The notes below the pieces were generated by a model. It made no database searches and was not told the DNA's origin. It worked only from the letters and a program-made list of their open reading frames with translations. The position numbers and the translations under genes were made by a program. Shown here piece after piece: positions 5,325-30,143 of a stretch of DNA of 37,962 nt. Within the stretch, counting starts at the first letter, position 1. Each line of letters starts with the position of its first letter. The stretch is taken from contig JANOTC010000277.1 of assembly GCA_031416175.1 (NCBI GenBank), forward strand, positions 1 to 37,962, read 5' to 3'. Source of the stretch: Gammaproteobacteria bacterium (lineage in GTDB: Bacteria; Pseudomonadota; Gammaproteobacteria; S012-40).

Positions 5325-8237
5325 TCATAATTGAAACGTCAGCCGCCCGTACGATTGCGTTTCTCCATACGTGTCCAAGCCCTTAGCGATGCCAAGGGTC
5401 GCTTCAATTTGAAACCGATATCCTAACGTAAATTCTGCCGCTACTTCGGCACCGACGGATCGGTACCAAGTATCTTTCCCACCCGGATTTTGCGAAGACC
5501 AAATGCGCGCGGCTTCCGTGAATACATTGCCCTTAGCACGTGTGACGCCAAGCGGTGGCGACATGGTGCCAGTTTCAAACCACCCCAGCGGGAAATGCCA
5601 ATCCGCGCTGCCGAACTGAAGTGTGTTTCCCCTTAAAGCCGCCAGTCCCGATGGATAACCATGTAAGTCAAAACTGCGCTTGTTCGCCAAGGTTGCGCTA
5701 CCGTTGCCTATCGGGTCAAATATTTGCCCGCTATCAAAGCCAAGGCGATACGGCTTCGCAGTTTCGCTTTCTATCGCGCCCAATCCACGTAATTCAACGA
5801 CGCTTCGCCAAAAGAGGGGTGTGAAATAGCCGATGGTTGCGGCGAGCGCATTTCCGGGATTTTCGCTTTCTCCGATGTTTGAGTCGAAACTTCCCTGAGC
5901 TTGAAATCCGGCTTGTCGATAAACAGCTTTGGGTAATTTACGCGCTGAATTGTATTTGGCGCCGACAAACCATTGCCCGTCGCGACCGTCCGCTGCTGCG
6001 GGACCCAAAGAATCGCGATATGATTGATGATAATAGTTATACGATGCGCCAAAATAAATTTCCTTTTGCTGTGTAACCGACACGAAAGGCAATTGAACGA
6101 CCGCTGTCAAACTGTCGTGCGTCTCGATTTCTGCAGTGATATTCGAATCTTTAAAAAGTCCAATACTGTTGCTGCGGTTTAGAAAAAGGGAAAGTGTCGG
6201 AAACCAACGATCGTAACTGTAATTGATGTCCCATGTTGTATTGCCATGCTCGGACTCGACGCTGAGCGCAACGGCATAGGTATGCCAGCTGAGCGGGTCG
6301 TGGCCGGAGGTTATTAGCGCTAGAGTCGTGCTATCGGGGCCGAAACCGATTCCTGGCAGCCACCACGTGGGTCGTAATCGCGATAGTCCGCTATAAGGTC
6401 GCGCGGAGGATACATCATTGCGCGTTGGATAGGCGGGCGCGGTAATGGCCGAGGACGCTTGCGCCGCGTCAACTGTGAGGTCGGGCTTCACTGCGACGCT
6501 TTCCGGCGCGCGCATCGTTAAGCGATATAAATCGAAACCTTTCGCATTGAGACTCGAGTAGAATAATGTACGTTTATCCGCTGAAAGGCTAGGATAGAAC
6601 GCGCCGCCTATTTCATGGGTAATTTGCTGTGTGGACCCGCTGGCCAAGTCAAATTGGTAGGCATTGTAGGTGCCATTTTCATCGTCGATGTAAATAATCG
6701 ACGTGCCATCGGCCGAAAACTGTGGCTGCGCTTTGATGCTTGAACCGTGAGTCAACGCGTGCCATTGTTTTTTCTTCAAATCGAACAGTTCGAGATTCCA
6801 TTGATCAAGGCGACGTACCGACGCAACGAATGTTAGTCCATCAGGCGCCCAATCAATGCTGCTAATTAAAACGTTTTCATCTTGCCACACTACCTCTTTG
6901 ATCTGTCCATTGGCATCTAATAGCTCTAATTGATGCTTTCCTGCGCTCAATTTAATTGCTGCAATTTGGCTCCCATCTGGACTCCATGCCGCGTAACTGT
7001 ATCTCCCCGCCGTGGTTAGGCGGCGTGATGTGCCAGTCGCTGGATCAATCTGAAACAAGTCGAAATAAAAATTGGTATTGGAACTGACTTCCCCTTGCAC
7101 AACTAAAAGACCCGCGCTAGGGTGCCAGTCAAACTGCCCGGCTGCACTCACATTGCTCACAACGTCGTGACGATTGTGTTGACTGTCAAAACGCATCAGC
7201 GCACTGAGTTGTTCACCGTCAGCACGAAGATAGTAAATACTGCCGTCTGCCGCGACACGGGAACGCCCCGTGTGGAGGCCAAGGTCGGTCAGTGCTGTGC
7301 CGGTAGCGTGTGTCGTCTGCTTCGCACGTTCTATCTCCGCGTCAAATTGTTGGTGCAAATAGGTTTCAAATTCGCGCCATAAGGTATAAAAGTCGCGTTG
7401 GCCGAAGGTGCGCATGGCGGTGGAATTCAGCATGAACGGCATGAGATTACTACTGTAATTCTCGACAAAATTTTGGATATAGGCATCGCCATAGCGGTCA
7501 TGCAAGAAGTTGAAAAAATAAACGCCATATACGTAGCGTGCTGTTCCACCCGGCCAAGTTACTAATGGCTGATTTAAAGCGTCTAGTGATTTAAAGCCGT
7601 TAATCAATTCATTGCGCATTAGCATGCGAAAGTAGGTGGATTGACCGCGGCCAACTCCGCGTTCTTGATCGGTCTCCATATAGGTTGCTAGACCTTCGAC
7701 AATCCAGGTCGGTTCGAAATGATTGGGAAAAAGAAGGGGTAAAAAAGGGAAAAATCTGCCAACAAAATGCCGTAGGCGTTCTGGCGGGCCAACTGCTTTG
7801 TCTAAATGCAATATATGCACATATTCGTGTTGAAACACGCGGGCTAAGGAATCGTCGTTGTCTTCGAGTCCATCAACATCGGACGATGGTGCAACGTGAA
7901 CCAAAATTTGATTAAAGGGCAAAGACGACGCGGAGCCGTTTACATAGTCCCACTGGTCGGCGACGATGACTTGAGTTTTTTCGCGCGGCACCCATTTGAA
8001 ATACAAGCTGAGCCGATCATGGATTGGCTCAGCTTGTTGCGCGAGTTTGTTAGCCACGGCTTCCAAACCCACCGAATAGTGAAATTCAAAGTGAGGGGTT
8101 TCAATGGTTTGCCAGCTGGCGGCGGAATCAAACTCGCGTGCTGCTTGGGCTGGCCAAGGTGCTGTTCCAAACAGAAAAAACCCGAGCGCCATAACGACGC
8201 GGGGCGCACTCTGGCGTCGCTTGAACATATTAAACAT
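5325..8237 (-). CDS. Secreted multidomain protein: peptidase-MA/gluzincin-like domain + PD40 (TolB-like) beta-propeller repeats + Omp85-like C-terminal beta-barrel (970 aa)
   Basis: The start is taken at ATG 8237 (MFNMFKRRQSAPRVVMALGFFLFGTAPWPAQA|A is a signal peptide), not at the ORF-track 8363, which overlaps argA. HEYVH is at 7815-7829 and WIVEGLATY lies ~40 aa later (gluzincin third ligand). PD40-like repeats are AAWSPDGSQIAA (6957-6992), IDWAPDGLTFVA (6822-6857), PQFSADGTSIIY (6690-6725) and YPSLSADKRTLFY (6558-6596). The C-terminal ~350 aa has alternating beta-strand character and an ALRGNTLQFGSADWHFPL motif (5586-5639) reminiscent of the Omp85 RG[YF] loop. Confidence 0.8.
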   Translation of the reverse strand: MFNMFKRRQSAPRVVMALGFFLFGTAPWPAQAAREFDSAASWQTIETPHFEFHYSVGLEAVANKLAQQAEPIHDRLSLYFKWVPREKTQVIVADQWDYVNGSASSLPFNQILVHVAPSSDVDGLEDNDDSLARVFQHEYVHILHLDKAVGPPERLRHFVGRFFPFLPLLFPNHFEPTWIVEGLATYMETDQERGVGRGQSTYFRMLMRNELINGFKSLDALNQPLVTWPGGTARYVYGVYFFNFLHDRYGDAYIQNFVENYSSNLMPFMLNSTAMRTFGQRDFYTLWREFETYLHQQFDAEIERAKQTTHATGTALTDLGLHTGRSRVAADGSIYYLRADGEQLSALMRFDSQHNRHDVVSNVSAAGQFDWHPSAGLLVVQGEVSSNTNFYFDLFQIDPATGTSRRLTTAGRYSYAAWSPDGSQIAAIKLSAGKHQLELLDANGQIKEVVWQDENVLISSIDWAPDGLTFVASVRRLDQWNLELFDLKKKQWHALTHGSSIKAQPQFSADGTSIIYIDDENGTYNAYQFDLASGSTQQITHEIGGAFYPSLSADKRTLFYSSLNAKGFDLYRLTMRAPESVAVKPDLTVDAAQASSAITAPAYPTRNDVSSARPYSGLSRLRPTWWLPGIGFGPDSTTLALITSGHDPLSWHTYAVALSVESEHGNTTWDINYSYDRWFPTLSLFLNRSNSIGLFKDSNITAEIETHDSLTAVVQLPFVSVTQQKEIYFGASYNYYHQSYRDSLGPAAADGRDGQWFVGAKYNSARKLPKAVYRQAGFQAQGSFDSNIGESENPGNALAATIGYFTPLFWRSVVELRGLGAIESETAKPYRLGFDSGQIFDPIGNGSATLANKRSFDLHGYPSGLAALRGNTLQFGSADWHFPLGWFETGTMSPPLGVTRAKGNVFTEAARIWSSQNPGGKDTWYRSVGAEVAAEFTLGYRFQIEATLGIAKGLDTYGETQSYGRLTFQL

Positions 8238-9571
8238 TAGCGCCCCGTGCTGGTGAGTTTTTTTATAAATACTTTGGAACGGCGTTGATAGTTGTACATG
8301 GCCTGCCTTTCGACGGGCAAGTCGGTCAACGTCGCTTCTTCGAACCCGTGTTCCAAAAACCAATGCGCCGTCCTGGCGGTTAAAACGAATAAGCGTTGAA
8401 CGCCCTTTTTCACTGCGAATTGCTCAGCCATATTCAGTAGAGTTTGTGCCCGCCCTTCGCGACGATAGTCAGGATGCACGGCTAGGCAGGCCAATTCTGC
8501 GACAAAATCTTGCGGAAATGGATAAATTGCGCTGCACGCGATAATCATTCCGTCGCGTTCCATCACCGCAAAATGATCGATTTCCATTTCGAGACGTTCG
8601 CGCGAGCGCCGCACCAAGATCCCGTCGCGTTCTAAAGGCTCGATCAGCTCCAATATCCCCCCGACATCGTCAATGGTGGCACGCCGTAGCGCATCATAAC
8701 GGTCTGCGGTAATTAAGGTGCCAATGCCATTGCGCGTGAACAGTTCAAGCAAAAGTGCGCCGTCACGGTTGCCATCAAAGATATGCGTACGCCGCACGCC
8801 ACCGGCACAGGCTTTCGCTGCGTTGAGCAAATAATGGCGTTGCGTGTCTGATGCCAGCTCGTTAGACACGAGTAATTGTTGCGCTGCACTTAATGTTAGG
8901 TGTGGAAGTAATTCTTGATTTTTAGTCACGCCCGGTTCATTGGTCAGCAATAGCAGTTTATCCGCCTTGAGTTCCGTGGCGATGGCCGTGGCCACATCTT
9001 CAGCCGTTAGATTAAATATTTCTCCGGTCGGCGAATAACCAATCGACGATAACAATACGATTTCGTCGCGATGCAAATGATGGCGAATCGCTTCGGCATC
9101 GACGCGGCGCACTTCGCCCGTGTGGCAATAGTCAATGCCGTTGCGCACACCATACGGCCTGGCCGTTACGAAATTACCACTCGCCGCTCGCAAACGCGCG
9201 CCGGCCATGGGTGAATTAGCCAAGCCCATCGACAACATCGCTTCCACTTCCATGTGAACGCGGCCGATGGCTTCTTTGACTAAGGGGAGCGTTGCGCCAT
9301 CGGTAATACGAATGCCGTTAACGAGGCGACTTGCTATGCCTGCATCGTTAATCCGCGCTTCGATTTGTGGGCGGGCGCCCAATACGAGGCAAAGCTTGAC
9401 CCCGAGGCTGTCCAGAAGCGCGATGTCGTGCACGATGTCGGGAAATTGCGCGCTGGCGATGGTATCGCCTTCGAGCAAAATAACGAACGTGCGTCCCCGG
9501 TGGGCGTTGATATACGGCGACGCATGTCGAAACCAATGGACGAATTGCTCGCCGTCGAACGTCTCCCGCAC
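8237..9571 (-). CDS. argA: Amino-acid N-acetyltransferase (N-acetylglutamate synthase)
   Basis: 444 aa. The N-terminus FVHWFRHASPYINAHRGRTFVILLEG matches the ArgA kinase-like fold start, and the C-terminus looks like a GNAT domain. It has a GTG start with AGGGAGG 7 nt upstream. Confidence 0.9.
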   Translation of the reverse strand: MRETFDGEQFVHWFRHASPYINAHRGRTFVILLEGDTIASAQFPDIVHDIALLDSLGVKLCLVLGARPQIEARINDAGIASRLVNGIRITDGATLPLVKEAIGRVHMEVEAMLSMGLANSPMAGARLRAASGNFVTARPYGVRNGIDYCHTGEVRRVDAEAIRHHLHRDEIVLLSSIGYSPTGEIFNLTAEDVATAIATELKADKLLLLTNEPGVTKNQELLPHLTLSAAQQLLVSNELASDTQRHYLLNAAKACAGGVRRTHIFDGNRDGALLLELFTRNGIGTLITADRYDALRRATIDDVGGILELIEPLERDGILVRRSRERLEMEIDHFAVMERDGMIIACSAIYPFPQDFVAELACLAVHPDYRREGRAQTLLNMAEQFAVKKGVQRLFVLTARTAHWFLEHGFEEATLTDLPVERQAMYNYQRRSKVFIKKLTSTGR

Positions 9572-26568: not shown

Positions 26569-26609
26569 CAGCCTAGGCAATCTCCCGAGTGCGGAGATTG
26601 CCTAGGCTG
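26569..26609 (-). terminator. Perfect 17-bp stem / 7-nt loop hairpin downstream of the cytochrome gene (terminator or REP-like; no U-tract)
   Basis: cagcctaggcaatctcc (26569-26585), cgagtgc, ggagattgcctaggctg (26593-26609). It lies between the cytochrome stop (26669) and the SDR start (26546). No T-run follows on either strand. Confidence 0.45.
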
Positions 26610-26668: not shown

Positions 26669-29600
26669 CTAACAACCCGCCGGTTTGGGGACGCGCTGGC
26701 AGAAAAGATCTTGCGTATAGGCGAGGACATCGCGCGCCTCTTTATTGGCAGTCACAAAGTCAGGAATGCCTTGCACGTCAAGCATCGGCGGCATATTTGT
26801 ACCGGGTTGACCAAATCGCGCCTTATGGAAAAACTCCGTGGCCTCGTTTTTAGCTACGTCGAGAATATCTAGTTTCGCTGTAGTGCCAGGTGGACTCGTT
26901 ACGCCGTCGGCACCGTGACAGGATGCGCAATTGACGGAGGTGTGTTTGGCGCCACTGTATATGGCTCCACCGTTTAGGATAGACGCGGGCATGTCAGCCG
27001 TGACGATGCCGCCAAGATTGGAAATGTAAGTGGTGGTGTCGATGATGCCGTAGGTTAAGAAATAGGCTAAGTCCCAAACGTCAGCGTCGACTAAGGGTTT
27101 GACTATGCCAGCTTGCGCCACGCCAAAACTATGTTGACCTCCGCGTCCCAATTTAATCCACGTAAAGAGATATACCGCTAGCTCGTCGTCATTGGCGAAA
27201 AAACCCGTGTCTAGGTAGCGAGCGCGTAAACTTACTAAGTTATCTTTAGAAATTACGCTCCCGGCGGCGCGAAGAAAGCCGACACCCCGATAATTCCAAT
27301 CATGGCAAGTCACGCAGCGCCAAGTCGTTGAAATCGGACTGCCCGCCGGGACGTTGGGCACGCTCGTGTCCCGCGTCGCCCACATTGGATTGGCCGCAGT
27401 AGGCTCTTTGACGGCCGGGTCATCTTTACCCGCTTGTTCCCACCAATTATCAAAAAGGCGGCCACCTCGGGTCAGACTGACCGATGTCGTCAAGGCTGGC
27501 AAAGTCGCGGCATACGCGCGGGTATTGCCTGCTTCAAGCAGCGAAAGTCCGGCGAATTTACCTGCCGCTGGAATCATTGTCGACCCGGGGTCACCGAAAC
27601 GCGCTTTGTGGATAAACTCGGGCGGATTAACTGTTGCGAGCAATGCGATATTGGCGGCGTTTTGCTTGCCGTTGGCGCCGTGGCATTCTTTGCAGTTTCC
27701 AGGTGTTAATTCTGTGTAAAGAGTTTGGCCTGCGGTTGTGTTAGTGGCGGCAAGGCCATTCGTAACATCAATTACGCCGTCGACGTTATCCACTACGAAG
27801 GCGGCGAGGTCTTTGACATCGCGTTCTGTGAGTAGGTTGGTACCTGCGAATGCGTGGTTGGTGCCGGATCGAATAAAGTCCTCGACCAAGATTTTAGTGG
27901 TGCGTGTTCGAGTCAATATGCCGGGAAAGCCTGTCTTATGGTCGCCCAATCCATAGGCGCCATCTTTACCCTTGTAGTCCCAGCCATGGCATTCCTTACA
28001 GCGCCAACTGTCTGCACCACTTCGCGCGTTGTCAAACACGGTGCCTGTCTTAGAGCGTGTCGCCCAGCGTACTTGATCTGTAGTAGGGGGTGGCGCGTTA
28101 GCCTCTTTCCACCACTTGTCATAAAGGCGCCCGCCACGCTTAATGTTAGGCACTAGCCCTACTTGCGCATGCGCTAAGATATCGGCAGCTTTGGCCACCG
28201 TTGTACCTAGATCTGCAACACTAGTGATAAGGGTTGGCATGGATGGACTACTGCCCGGTTGACCATACAACACTTTGTGCATAAATTCCCAGGGATTGAC
28301 ATTTGCGACGGTATCAACGAACTCGTCTTCGCCTGTTCCCTTGGCGCCATCCGCAAAATCAATTCCTTTTCCGTCCAGATTGTGGCAGCCAGACCCCGTC
28401 CCGCATGTCGGGCCAAACAGAGTGCTACCATTCGTTATCGAAGTACCAATCGTTGTGCCGCTTATGTCGTCGATGAAGTGGAAGGGCGCCTTATCGGCTC
28501 TATGCAGATCGCGCTGCGACATAACAAAGCGGGTGAGACCGTAAATATCGATGTCGCTAAGGAGCTTGCCGAATGCGTGGTTAGACCCTGTTTTTATGTA
28601 GTTGAAAACATCCGCCGCCGTGGTGAATTTAACGGCCGTCGAGTTGGTCGGAATAATCCCGCGGATACCGGAGAAATTGCTGCCGTCTTTGAACACACCA
28701 TCGGCGCCCCGATAGTCCCAGCCATGACACTTGCTGCATCGCCAGGTTGAGGGGAGTGTCACTTCGCTATTCGCGTTAACGGGCCACAGCGGGTGCCTTG
28801 ACGCCGGTGCCGCTTTCGGTGGTGACGTAGCTTCCCACCATTTGTCATAAAGAAGGCCACCACGAACGAGATCGCCTACGATTTTGGTCGCGTCATTGTA
28901 AAGCGCCTCGCTAAATGTGCCTGTTGTTATCCCAGGATCGGTAACCGTTCCCGCCTTAAGTGTCTTGGCGTAGGCAAGAATGTTTTTCGCGTCAATGAGC
29001 GTCGGGCCACCTGGCATGCTAGTGTGTGCGTTGCCGAAACGGACTTTATGTATAAATTTGGCTGGCTGCTCGGCTGCGACTAGGAGTAGCGCATTACGGT
29101 TAGCTACAATTCTATGACAGGCAGAAGCCTCACAACCCTTATGCCCGTCTGCTACATAATTGAATGTCGTGTATTTTATTCTGCCAAGCTCCTTGTCACC
29201 ATTGCCAAGATTGTCAACTCTAAGCTCTTCTTTGGTTAGGAACGCGGTTAATTCGTAGACCTGTTGGACCTCTAACAACTTGTAAAACTGATGCTGCTTA
29301 TTTTGGCCATCAATGACTGCAGTACCGTTCAAGATAAATTCAAAGACTTGTTTAGGTGTTTTATCCGCCAACATGCTAGCCATGGAGCCCGTTCTAATGG
29401 GAGCTATTTCGCTGTCCGCATAATTCCAGCCGTGGCAGGAGGAACATCGCCAGTCGTCACCGTTCCTCACATTGGTGCTCCCGGACGCCTTAATCATGGG
29501 ATTGCTGAAACCGGGTGGCGCGGCTCCTTTGGCCCACCATTTGTCGTAAATGTTCCCGCCTAAGACGGGATCCGCCGCCTCGTAGAGGGCCTCAACAAAT

Positions 29601-29740
29601 TTAGGCAATTTGACGGTGGTGGTGCCGCCACCCCCGGGCTGACCTGAACACCCGCCGAGTAATATCGTAGTAGTGAATACGGCCCCAGCGAGCGCCAAGA
29701 ATCGCACAAATGCTTTAATCCACATTAGACCGACATCCAC
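26669..29740 (-). CDS. Lipoprotein multihaem c-type cytochrome with four tandem di-haem modules (1023 aa)
   Basis: The lipobox is ILLGG-C31-S. Haem motifs on the minus strand are CSSCH 29432-29446, CEASACH 29114-29134, CSKCH 28724-28738, CGTGSGCH 28382-28405, CKECH 27986-28000, CKECH 27680-27694, CVTCH 27302-27316 and CASCH 26915-26929. The motifs GGxLYDKWW, WRCxxCHGW[DN]Y and F[IMF]HK[AV]xFG...MP each recur four times. The start is GTG 29740 (GGAG 11 nt upstream) or ATG 29725. Confidence 0.85.
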   Translation of the reverse strand: MDVGLMWIKAFVRFLALAGAVFTTTILLGGCSGQPGGGGTTTVKLPKFVEALYEAADPVLGGNIYDKWWAKGAAPPGFSNPMIKASGSTNVRNGDDWRCSSCHGWNYADSEIAPIRTGSMASMLADKTPKQVFEFILNGTAVIDGQNKQHQFYKLLEVQQVYELTAFLTKEELRVDNLGNGDKELGRIKYTTFNYVADGHKGCEASACHRIVANRNALLLVAAEQPAKFIHKVRFGNAHTSMPGGPTLIDAKNILAYAKTLKAGTVTDPGITTGTFSEALYNDATKIVGDLVRGGLLYDKWWEATSPPKAAPASRHPLWPVNANSEVTLPSTWRCSKCHGWDYRGADGVFKDGSNFSGIRGIIPTNSTAVKFTTAADVFNYIKTGSNHAFGKLLSDIDIYGLTRFVMSQRDLHRADKAPFHFIDDISGTTIGTSITNGSTLFGPTCGTGSGCHNLDGKGIDFADGAKGTGEDEFVDTVANVNPWEFMHKVLYGQPGSSPSMPTLITSVADLGTTVAKAADILAHAQVGLVPNIKRGGRLYDKWWKEANAPPPTTDQVRWATRSKTGTVFDNARSGADSWRCKECHGWDYKGKDGAYGLGDHKTGFPGILTRTRTTKILVEDFIRSGTNHAFAGTNLLTERDVKDLAAFVVDNVDGVIDVTNGLAATNTTAGQTLYTELTPGNCKECHGANGKQNAANIALLATVNPPEFIHKARFGDPGSTMIPAAGKFAGLSLLEAGNTRAYAATLPALTTSVSLTRGGRLFDNWWEQAGKDDPAVKEPTAANPMWATRDTSVPNVPAGSPISTTWRCVTCHDWNYRGVGFLRAAGSVISKDNLVSLRARYLDTGFFANDDELAVYLFTWIKLGRGGQHSFGVAQAGIVKPLVDADVWDLAYFLTYGIIDTTTYISNLGGIVTADMPASILNGGAIYSGAKHTSVNCASCHGADGVTSPPGTTAKLDILDVAKNEATEFFHKARFGQPGTNMPPMLDVQGIPDFVTANKEARDVLAYTQDLFCQRVPKPAGC

Positions 29741-30094
29741 ATTAATATAGACTCCGCAGCGCTACACTGACCACATGATGTAAAAACATATTATAAAAAA
29801 GGGTGTATGGCTGATTTTGGTTAATAGGGCATTTTGGCTGCTACTCTCCGAGTTAGAGTGCAGACGCTCCTATTTGTTTTATACGGCGTTGGCCGAAAAA
29901 TCTTGAATAACAGGTGACGATTATATATGATTACGCCGCTTTCATCTGAGAGTGAAGGTCGTGTTGGCTGTCCCGAGGGTCTATGCATGTTAGCGGTGGA
30001 TAGGGTTTTTACATGAAGTCCGCATGACGTTTGGAGCGCCCCTGCTCTGGACTGTGTAGCCGCAGACCTATCGGGAATGTGCAAAATAAAGAAT

Positions 30095-30128
30095 GAAAAA
30101 AGTGGGCCCATGGCCCATTTTTGTTTTT
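30095..30128 (+). terminator. Canonical (bidirectional-looking) intrinsic terminator 15 nt upstream of the rimP start
   Basis: An A-tract (30095-30101) precedes the stem tgggcc (30103-30108) / ggccca (30112-30117) with a 3-nt loop. It is followed by TTTTTGTTTTT (30118-30128). Confidence 0.65.
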
Positions 30129-30143
30129 ACGGATTTGGAGTGA

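Follow-up and report, generated by a model that had tools for sequence, protein, structure and literature searches.

Class-I cytochrome c domains are known from chains carrying up to three or four haems, such as cytochrome c4, TsdBA and the cytochrome subunits of dehydrogenases. Cytochrome c4 is a periplasmic electron carrier that is often membrane-associated, and consists of two tandem class-I domains over about 200 amino acids (aa), with one covalent haem each. TsdBA combines four class-I domains and four haems in a single chain, and catalysis by TsdA requires a His/Cys-ligated haem. Membrane-anchored two-haem class-I cytochromes are likewise wired to quinol-oxidising or oxidase complexes, as in QcrC of the actinobacterial bcc complex and CcoP of cbb3 oxidase, and the multihaem lipoprotein cytochromes of Gram-negative bacteria include MtrC and OmcA. 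Here we analyse a gene on contig JANOTC010000277.1 of an uncultured gammaproteobacterium (assembly GCA_031416175.1; all 37,962 nucleotides were analysed and are hereafter “the window”), which encodes a cytochrome with eight predicted haem sites arranged in four two-haem modules. This protein is probably a lipid-tethered, extracytoplasmic electron-transfer protein that would connect quinone-linked complexes of the membrane with periplasmic or outer redox partners.

The initial annotation of this DNA had proposed a 1023-aa cytochrome built from a fourfold repeat of diverged two-haem modules, and both the gene and the repeat hold up. Translation yields an intact minus-strand open reading frame (ORF) of 1023 aa from a GTG codon, with a frame unbroken over 3 kb, although the public gene call begins at an ATG at codon 6 (M6) and is 1018 aa long. 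A regular-expression scan recovers all four repeat motifs at the residues originally listed, namely GGx[LI][YF]D[KN]WW at aa 61, 294, 536 and 759, WRCxxCH[GD]W[DN]Y at aa 97, 333, 579 and 807, [NQ]HxF at aa 149, 387, 628 and 869, and F[IMF]HK..[FY]G at aa 229, 486, 709 and 970. Pairs of modules align with BLASTP E-values of 4e-14 to 3e-33 and 26–33% identity (30–37% with MAFFT), and on this alignment evidence the homology of the four ~230-aa modules is beyond doubt, the repeat lying far above chance. Two details of the original description needed amendment. Eight haem sites are present, but not all have canonical spacing: six are CxxCH, and the second sites of modules 1 and 2 are CX4CH and CX5CH, respectively. 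The proposed Met-Pro context stands except in module 3, which reads M722-I-P.

The annotation had also declared the family unrecognised, which is correct for the module as a unit and not for its fold. The whole cytochrome scores 89.6 bits against PF00034 (cutoff 21.3; six stretches) and 85.1 bits against PF13442 (cutoff 27; five stretches), both class-I models; isolated half-modules reach just 18–26 bits against generic class-I Pfam models, and the CX4CH and CX5CH half-modules alone have no Pfam match. Profile–profile alignment (hhalign) identifies the N- and C-terminal halves of a module as homologous class-I domains (E 2e-5), matching helix 1, CxxCH, the ligand loop and the C-terminal helix. 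This is the class-I layout, defined here as an N-terminal helix, CxxCH, a sixth ligand in a loop ~35–45 residues further on, and a C-terminal helix, and the secondary structure of the module-3 model agrees with it. In the same alignment, GGRLYDKWW is the N-terminal helix of the first domain, an insertion of 33–45 aa lies between this helix and CxxCH, and an invariant His (H150, H388, H629, H870) sits in the Met-ligand loop, 3 residues upstream of the Met position, in a domain with no conserved Met. Judged from these alignments, two class-I cytochrome c domains in tandem make up each module. The N-domain haem is predicted to be His/His-ligated because of the invariant His in the sixth-ligand loop, and the C-domain haem to be His/Met-ligated because of the canonical Met in that loop.

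Structure prediction and searches of solved structures place the domains more firmly than the module. AlphaFold, given 41 module sequences, yields a confident model of module 3 (predicted local distance difference test, pLDDT, 91.1; predicted template modelling score, pTM, 0.89), and the full-length model (pLDDT 80.4, pTM 0.48) has good domains in an uncertain modular arrangement. Foldseek comparison of the full-length model to the PDB returned nothing at E<1e-3, and that of the module-3 model returned no whole-module relative (best template modelling score, TM, 0.30): its neighbours are Kustc0457, followed by TsdA, QcrC and c4 at TM 0.21–0.28. The best PDB neighbours of the module (Kustc0457, TsdA/TsdBA, QcrC, c4 and CcoP) are all two-haem electron-transfer cytochromes or subunits. 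Single domains compare better, with target-normalised TM of 0.5–0.6 to c6, c553 and Kustc0563-type cytochromes. At the sequence level, the module profile has weak PDB matches (4e-7 to 5e-5) to three-haem dehydrogenase subunits, CcoP, c4, QcrC, TsdBA and SoxA, a search with the protein itself likewise gives just weak class-I matches, and no NCBIfam model reaches its cutoff on the cytochrome. DUF1924 (PF09086) sums to 37 bits against a cutoff of 22.5, with a best stretch that covers only profile positions 6–46 of 96 around one CxxCH (aa 919–955), and its precomputed matches in homologues are flagged as “faint”. The fold class is thus ordinary, and no characterised protein or solved structure is related to the module as a whole; in line with the initial annotation, the Pfam and NCBIfam scans, the PDB profile search and the Foldseek search with the module model gave no full-module match to a characterised cytochrome family.

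The non-canonical second haem sites follow a pattern across the family. Nearly all two-module proteins have the canonical form here; most proteins with three or four modules use CX4CH or CX3CH in their first two modules. The CX5CH in module 2 of the cytochrome is found in no other of 40 four-module proteins, and arises from a one-residue insertion when compared with the CX4CH of its nearest orthologues. On sequence grounds, either haem attachment tolerates this insertion or the haem site is being lost. A literature search on non-standard haem motifs found no paper using the term CX5CH. At its C-terminus, the protein also carries a Cys pair (LFCQRVPKPAGC, aa 1014–1023, 26672–26701 on the minus strand), as does one of the closest orthologues (LYCKRVPKPTGC). 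This pair, which may form a terminal disulfide, falls outside the invariant and near-invariant columns of the four-module alignments.

The N-terminus bears out the lipoprotein originally proposed. From the M6 start, which places the Cys at position 26, the LLGG-C31 lipobox passes a PROSITE-type rule (lipobox [LVI][ASTVIG][GAS]C, basic N-region, Cys within residues 15–35). Residues 27–42 have a pLDDT below 50 in the full-length model, which is consistent with the Gly/Thr stretch after C31 being a flexible or disordered tether. The calculated mass of the mature polypeptide is about 106.5 kDa, and would rise to about 111.5 kDa plus lipid with eight haems of 0.62 kDa each. Residue +2 is Ser rather than Asp, which suggests outer-membrane sorting by the E. 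coli +2 rule. About 100 of 148 homologues also have a lipobox followed by a low-complexity linker, including two-module forms from Chloroflexota, and because these monoderm-type relatives carry the same arrangement, the trait common to the family is, as far as N-terminal sequences indicate, membrane tethering and not an outer-membrane location.

Relatives are numerous and barely annotated. A word-indexed protein search found 49 of them, 3 being orthologues at 55–60% identity and the others lying at 28–41%, all named solely “c-type cytochrome” or “mono/diheme cytochrome c family protein” at source. A HMMER scan of 1.84 billion cluster representatives with the module profile retrieved 406 proteins with E<=1e-30, a number that grew to 983 with E<=1e-10; the family comprises ~400–1000 clusters at 50% identity. 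A pattern scan of GTDB species representatives located at least 586 loci, mostly in Anaerolineales and other Chloroflexota, with further carriers in Acidimicrobiia, Planctomycetota, Verrucomicrobiota, and Alpha-, Beta- and Gammaproteobacteria; a single cultured carrier, Sedimenticola hydrogenitrophicus SB48, was found among them. Across 143 proteins, module number ranges from one to five (6, 75, 20, 40 and 2 proteins with 1, 2, 3, 4 and 5 modules, respectively). Some relatives have FN3, cadherin or PKD domains inserted after the lipobox, and fusions with NHL/multihaem or other large extracytoplasmic proteins also occur. No description of the family was found in the literature on the motif strings, on multihaem, NrfD or molybdopterin proteins of Anaerolineae/Chloroflexi, or on Sedimenticola NapC and dihaem cytochromes.

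Orthologues retain the repeat motifs, and so do 361 distinct modules drawn from several phyla, in which the haem-1 CxxCH is present in 100%, the His equivalent to H629 in 99%, the Met equivalent to M722 in 98% and the His equivalent to H711 in 92%. Several other N-domain residues are similarly constrained (D541 98%, W587 99%, Y589 98%, G591 100% and F648 98%). All four modules of the cytochrome carry the equivalents of D541, W587, Y589, G591, H629, F648, H711 and M722, along with the second haem motif. The haem Cys and His and the ligand residues are invariant across the orthologues and further relatives.

Gene neighbourhoods of relatives provide the main functional clue. We surveyed 80 loci of the family; the relatives in the contexts below are at 30–38% identity to the cytochrome. 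About 30 of these loci, mainly from Chloroflexota (among L009–L068), share a gene order consisting of a two-module cytochrome, a small membrane-anchored two-haem cytochrome, a molybdenum bis(pyranopterin guanine dinucleotide) (Mo-bisPGD) subunit, a 4Fe-4S subunit, an NrfD/DsrP-like membrane subunit and a TorD-like chaperone with a ferredoxin domain. The operon is found mainly in Anaerolineales and is usually preceded by a two-component regulator (e.g., L022 9804–15695). Its Mo-bisPGD subunit is exported by the twin-arginine translocation (TAT) pathway and has ArrA (6cz7, 1e-72) and PsrA (2vpw, 1e-67) as nearest solved relatives, the 4Fe-4S subunit resembles QcrC and DsrO, and none of the four subunits scanned reaches an NCBIfam cutoff. 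In an Anaerolineaceae genome (L009), a four-module form lies inside this operon. At about 12 loci, the family gene adjoins Rieske/cytochrome b genes (b6f-like), which includes two-module relatives encoded within such operons; at three of them (L023, L028, L042) the gaps are just 14–79 bp, as expected for a cytochrome c subunit or acceptor of a bc-type complex. At eight proteobacterial loci, the family gene is paired with NapC/NirT, as in S. hydrogenitrophicus, where a one-module gene, NapC/NirT and a two-module gene follow one another (L071 9890–12740). All three partner types (bc-type, NapC/NirT and NrfD-type) exchange electrons with the quinone pool, and the electron-transfer role first proposed for the cytochrome agrees with these redox neighbourhoods.

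These loci yielded additional observations. A conserved gene of ~190 aa lies between the two-module cytochrome and Mo-subunit genes (L022 9081–9803 and L046 2705–3397, as well as L018, L025, L034, L039, L051 and L009). Its product has an N-terminal transmembrane helix, the motif LPE[YF]AxRTGExCxxCHVxPGGGGPRTLRG, a class-I GAELYDIACxxCHG...SGMPxF domain and a C-terminal CGGN, and thus adds another uncharacterised two-haem cytochrome to the Arr/Psr-like operon; L021 has a five-haem ActA/NrfH-like gene at this position instead. An uncultured Chromatiales metagenome-assembled genome (MAG) encodes three family paralogues (L005, L006, L013), one of them an FN3 plus four-module protein of 1505 aa (L005 8456–12973) that is preceded, 434 bp away, by a gene for a 408-aa two-domain multicopper-oxidase/NirK-like protein (L005 6796–8022).

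The gammaproteobacterial four-module gene stands apart from this pattern. As the initial annotation had noted, no ccm, porin, MtrA or redox-enzyme genes adjoin it, its neighbours being housekeeping genes. It is divergent from rimP-nusA-infB in 7/7 four-module gammaproteobacterial loci (the window, P0002, P0009, P0012, P0028, P0007 and the Chromatiales MAG locus L006), with a variable other flank. The G+C content of the gene (0.53) equals the window mean, which together with the strict synteny rules out recent horizontal transfer and identifies the cytochrome as a vertically inherited, stand-alone core gene of this clade. The earlier term “stand-alone” thus suits the four-module gammaproteobacterial forms, but not the shorter relatives, which have conserved redox partners. 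The host NusA shares ~70% identity with its counterparts in Thioalkalivibrio, Thiohalobacter, Ectothiorhodospira and Sedimenticola, which makes the host an uncultured gammaproteobacterium close to the sulfur-oxidising Chromatiales and Ectothiorhodospirales.

Because shorter relatives adjoin quinone-linked membrane complexes, an electron carrier outside the cytoplasm is the most likely role, and the observed architecture, conservation, fold class and gene contexts of relatives fit it. The protein would be exported by Sec and lipidated at Cys31, after which the Gly/Thr linker would tether four consecutive two-haem modules to the membrane, at the inner face of the outer membrane if the +2 Ser rule applies. 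Within each module, the N-domain would hold a His/His haem of lower potential in a Trp/Tyr/Arg/Asp-rich shell (GGxLYDKWW, WRCxxCHGWDY), and the C-domain a His/Met haem of higher potential. Electrons would then pass through the periplasm between quinol-oxidising or quinone-reducing complexes (bc-type, NapC/NirT-type, NrfD-type) and periplasmic or outer redox partners; the direction of flow is what we infer, and so are the partners, the location, the axial ligands and the covalent attachment of haem at each of the eight sites. Four points weigh against this account. The four-module clade has no adjacent redox partner, so that the partners are borrowed by analogy from paralogous one- to three-module forms of other lineages. 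The N-domain has, by alignment, ~12 near-invariant residues beyond the haem motif (D541, W543, W579, R580, W587, D588, Y589, G591, H629, F648 and others), which would exceed the need of a usual carrier. Two of the eight sites are CX4CH or CX5CH, where haem attachment is only predicted, and the latter is found solely here. Finally, a pTM of only 0.48 for the full-length model leaves predicted inter-module contacts and haem spacing unfixed.

The unusual constraint on the N-domain pocket, conserved across phyla despite ~30% overall identity, is also what would be anticipated if the cytochrome were itself a catalytic terminal oxidoreductase, whose N-domain haem would lose its distal His and react with a small substrate (peroxide, NO or nitrite, sulfur species, or a metal or metalloid) while the C-domain haem feeds in electrons. 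Such an enzyme would account for the Sedimenticola and Rhodocyclales-type operons, in which a one-module gene, NapC/NirT and a two-module gene come with no other terminal enzyme, and for a quinone-interacting partner that varies (bc, NapC, NrfD-type) around a constant cytochrome, as would fit a functional end-point. We nevertheless consider it unlikely, although worth keeping in view: catalytic class-I haems such as those of TsdA and SoxA are known to use Cys, Lys or Tyr as distal ligand and none of these is conserved here, the invariant His occupies the normal sixth-ligand loop, and the closest structural and sequence neighbours are mostly carriers or electron-transfer subunits, TsdA and SoxA excepted. 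Four copies of a catalytic unit per chain would also be unusual, and the Chloroflexota loci already hold a bona fide Mo enzyme as the likely catalyst.

More broadly, and with comparably low confidence, the module could represent a new functional unit in which the Trp/Tyr/Arg/Asp-lined His/His N-domain haem performs chemistry or long-range hole or electron hopping. The family would then provide a constant lipid-tethered terminal unit, present in 1–5 copies and combined with one quinol dehydrogenase or another (bc, NapC/NirT, NrfD-type Mo complex), which would make it either a previously unrecognised respiratory end-module or a periplasm-spanning wire of class-I domains. None of the findings to date calls for a new mechanism.

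Extracellular electron transfer, for example with a mineral, an electrode or Fe(II), through a conduit that is exposed at the surface or spans the periplasm and is made as a wire of class-I domains instead of a tightly packed multihaem fold, seems improbable. The non-Asp +2 residue and the long flexible linker behind the lipidated Cys would suit such a conduit, yet the same lipobox occurs in Chloroflexota relatives encoded within inner-membrane respiratory-complex operons. Similarly, a module number of 1 to 5 resembles a length-adjustable chain, but class-I haems are normally too distant for wire-like conduction unless packed specifically, and the inter-module arrangement is predicted with low confidence (full-length pTM 0.48). 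The relatives with FN3, cadherin and PKD domains between lipobox and modules, or with NHL/multihaem and other large extracytoplasmic fusions, would also suit a conduit, while the four-module loci have neither secretion genes nor a porin-cytochrome partner, of the MtrAB type or any other, next to the gene, and scores to the MtrC/OmcA models fall below their cutoffs. That the ORF is an annotation artefact, or encodes a repeat protein that is decaying or without function, might explain the singular CX5CH site, but is very hard to reconcile with an intact 3-kb frame, a position kept in 7/7 loci, and syntenic orthologues 55–60% identical and further relatives 32–41% identical in which haem Cys/His and ligand residues are invariant.

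Table 1. Coordinates of the cytochrome gene, its predicted modules and haem motifs, and flanking elements in the window.
Feature	Position	Strand	Basis
Complete cytochrome ORF	26669..29740	-	Translation; GTG start, alternative ATG at codon 6
Predicted lipoprotein signal peptide, lipobox L-L-G-G-C31 at its end	29648..29740	-	Translation and lipobox rule
Gly/Thr-rich tether SGQPGGGGTTTVKLPK behind the predicted lipidated Cys	29600..29647	-	Translation; pLDDT <50 at aa 27-42
Module 1 (aa 48-280): N-domain CSSCH and H150; C-domain CEASACH (CX4CH), H231, M242	28901..29599	-	Regular expression, alignment
Module 2 (aa 281-522): N-domain CSKCH and H388; C-domain CGTGSGCH (CX5CH), H488, M501	28175..28900	-	Regular expression, alignment
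Module 3 (aa 523-745): N-domain CKECH and H629; C-domain CKECH, H711, M722	27506..28174	-	Regular expression, alignment, AlphaFold model
Module 4 (aa 746-1023): N-domain CVTCH and H870; C-domain CASCH, H972, M983; C-terminal C1014...C1023	26672..27505	-	Regular expression, alignment
Haem motif 1, CSSCH	29432..29446	-	Translation
Haem motif 2, non-canonical CX4CH (C203-EASA-C208-H)	29114..29134	-	Translation
Haem motif 3, CSKCH	28724..28738	-	Translation
Haem motif 4, non-canonical CX5CH (C446-GTGSG-C452-H; aa 446-453)	28382..28405	-	Translation
Haem motif 5, CKECH	27986..28000	-	Translation
Haem motif 6, CKECH	27680..27694	-	Translation
Haem motif 7, CVTCH	27302..27316	-	Translation
Haem motif 8, CASCH	26915..26929	-	Translation
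Perfect 17-bp stem-loop, 60 nt past the cytochrome stop, without U-tract	26569..26609	-	dG -34.5 kcal/mol, z -6.7
Divergent intergenic region cytochrome/rimP, 403 bp	29741..30143	.	Intergenic; weak sigma-70-like match at 29773-29744

Around the gene (Table 1), the downstream hairpin reported initially is real and possibly acts as a terminator or an mRNA-stabilising element. An SDR gene lies downstream of the cytochrome gene, and the divergent upstream neighbours are rimP-nusA-infB-rbfA-truB. Farther genes in the window include trpFBA, accD, folC, a SPOR-domain gene, leuCDB, asd and an RND efflux pump, as well as a 1012-aa ORF (5325–8363, minus strand) with a weak match to PD40/WD40-like beta-propeller repeats and otherwise unannotated. 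The cytochrome promoter should lie in the divergent intergenic region, which contains no FNR-type box, tRNA or Rfam match, and whose cytochrome-proximal part can be aligned solely with the closest orthologue. Across the whole window, the FNR-type palindrome TTGATNNNNATCAA has 32 matches with <=2 mismatches, compared to 17 +/- 4 in shuffled sequences, none of them in this spacer. On the rimP side, a GC-rich hairpin followed by a T-run (AAAAGTGGGCCCATGGCCCATTTTTGTTTTT, 30098–30122 on the plus strand) precedes the rimP start by 22 nt. The hairpin core does not vary among 6/6 syntenic loci (the window, L001, L003, L085, L086, L087), in which the rest of the spacer is unalignable, and the hairpin is probably a leader terminator or attenuator of the rimP-nusA-infB operon. 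Unlike in E. coli, no metY tRNA is found upstream of the rimP operon, and the hairpin has no Rfam match.

The cytochrome is an eight-domain, lipid-tethered class-I chain from a family with its own conserved haem-1 pocket, for which there is no curated model and no solved structure. Because this family spans at least five phyla and its genes recur next to quinone-interacting membrane complexes of three kinds, it is probably an overlooked respiratory-chain component of uncultured sediment and groundwater bacteria, including Anaerolineales, Acidimicrobiia and sulfur-oxidiser-related Gammaproteobacteria. Defining it would improve the annotation of several hundred to ~1000 protein clusters and give a handle on the uncharacterised Arr/Psr-like molybdoenzyme operon. 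The frequent CX4CH, and the CX5CH seen here, within a class-I fold also offer a test case for haem-attachment tolerance. Overall, the family is real, widespread, uncharacterised and experimentally tractable.

Among solved structures, the best match to the module is Kustc0457, a two-haem class-I electron-transfer partner in the Kuenenia HAO-like complex (6h5l_B; E 5e-5, probability 0.96). Its single domains match, but the whole module does not (TM 0.30, root-mean-square deviation, rmsd, 13 A over 213 columns, 20% identity), and its genomic context is different. The best profile-to-PDB matches (E 4e-7 to 5e-5) are the three-haem subunits of membrane-bound glucose, fructose and alcohol dehydrogenases (PDB 8hdd_B, 7w2j_C, 9x0q_B), which likewise string several class-I domains in one chain and pass electrons to the membrane. 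These subunits, however, have three domains that are all His/Met, are quinone-reducing with flavo- or quinoprotein partners, and do not have the GGxLYDKWW / CHGWDY motifs. Cytochrome c4 (PDB 6q2u, 8uf3, 1h1o; profile E 3e-6 to 3e-5) shares the tandem of two domains, but their orientation differs (Foldseek TM 0.21–0.27, rmsd about 13 A). Relative to c4, the modules described here have the N-domain insertion, a Trp-rich shell and His for Met in the ligand loop, are repeated 1–5 times and lipid-anchored, and include some C-domains with CX3-5CH; given the absence of a conserved N-domain Met and the low TM, the cytochrome falls outside the c4 family.

Of the TsdBA and TsdA structures (PDB 5lo9, 4v2k, 4wq7), TsdBA is the top Foldseek match of the full-length model (E 6e-3) and among the top matches of the module (E 6e-4), with a TM of only 0.21, and family alignments contain no invariant Cys outside the haem motifs, which excludes membership of TsdA. 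QcrC (about 4e-6) and CcoP (8snh_G, 4e-4) are weak sequence matches; compared to both, the anchor here is a lipid rather than a transmembrane helix and the gene is not beside bc or oxidase genes, and scores remain well below the model cutoffs for CcoP (TIGR00782, 47.6 vs 179.95) and QcrC (NF050122, 37.4 vs 200), as they do for SoxX (TIGR04485, 28.5 vs 61). MtrC and OmcA have an unrelated fold and haem packing, and the cytochrome is not one of them (PF22113, 20.5 bits vs a cutoff of 30; TIGR03507, 4.8 vs 209), with no MtrAB genes at its locus and no porin or MtrA gene nearby. By analogy, the cytochrome would work like the multi-domain class-I cytochromes of the c4, QcrC, CcoP and TsdB types, yet it fails to qualify as a member of any of them. 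What is known is the class-I fold; what is new is its use in a modular chain, anchored by a lipid, in which each two-haem unit has a distinctive first domain.

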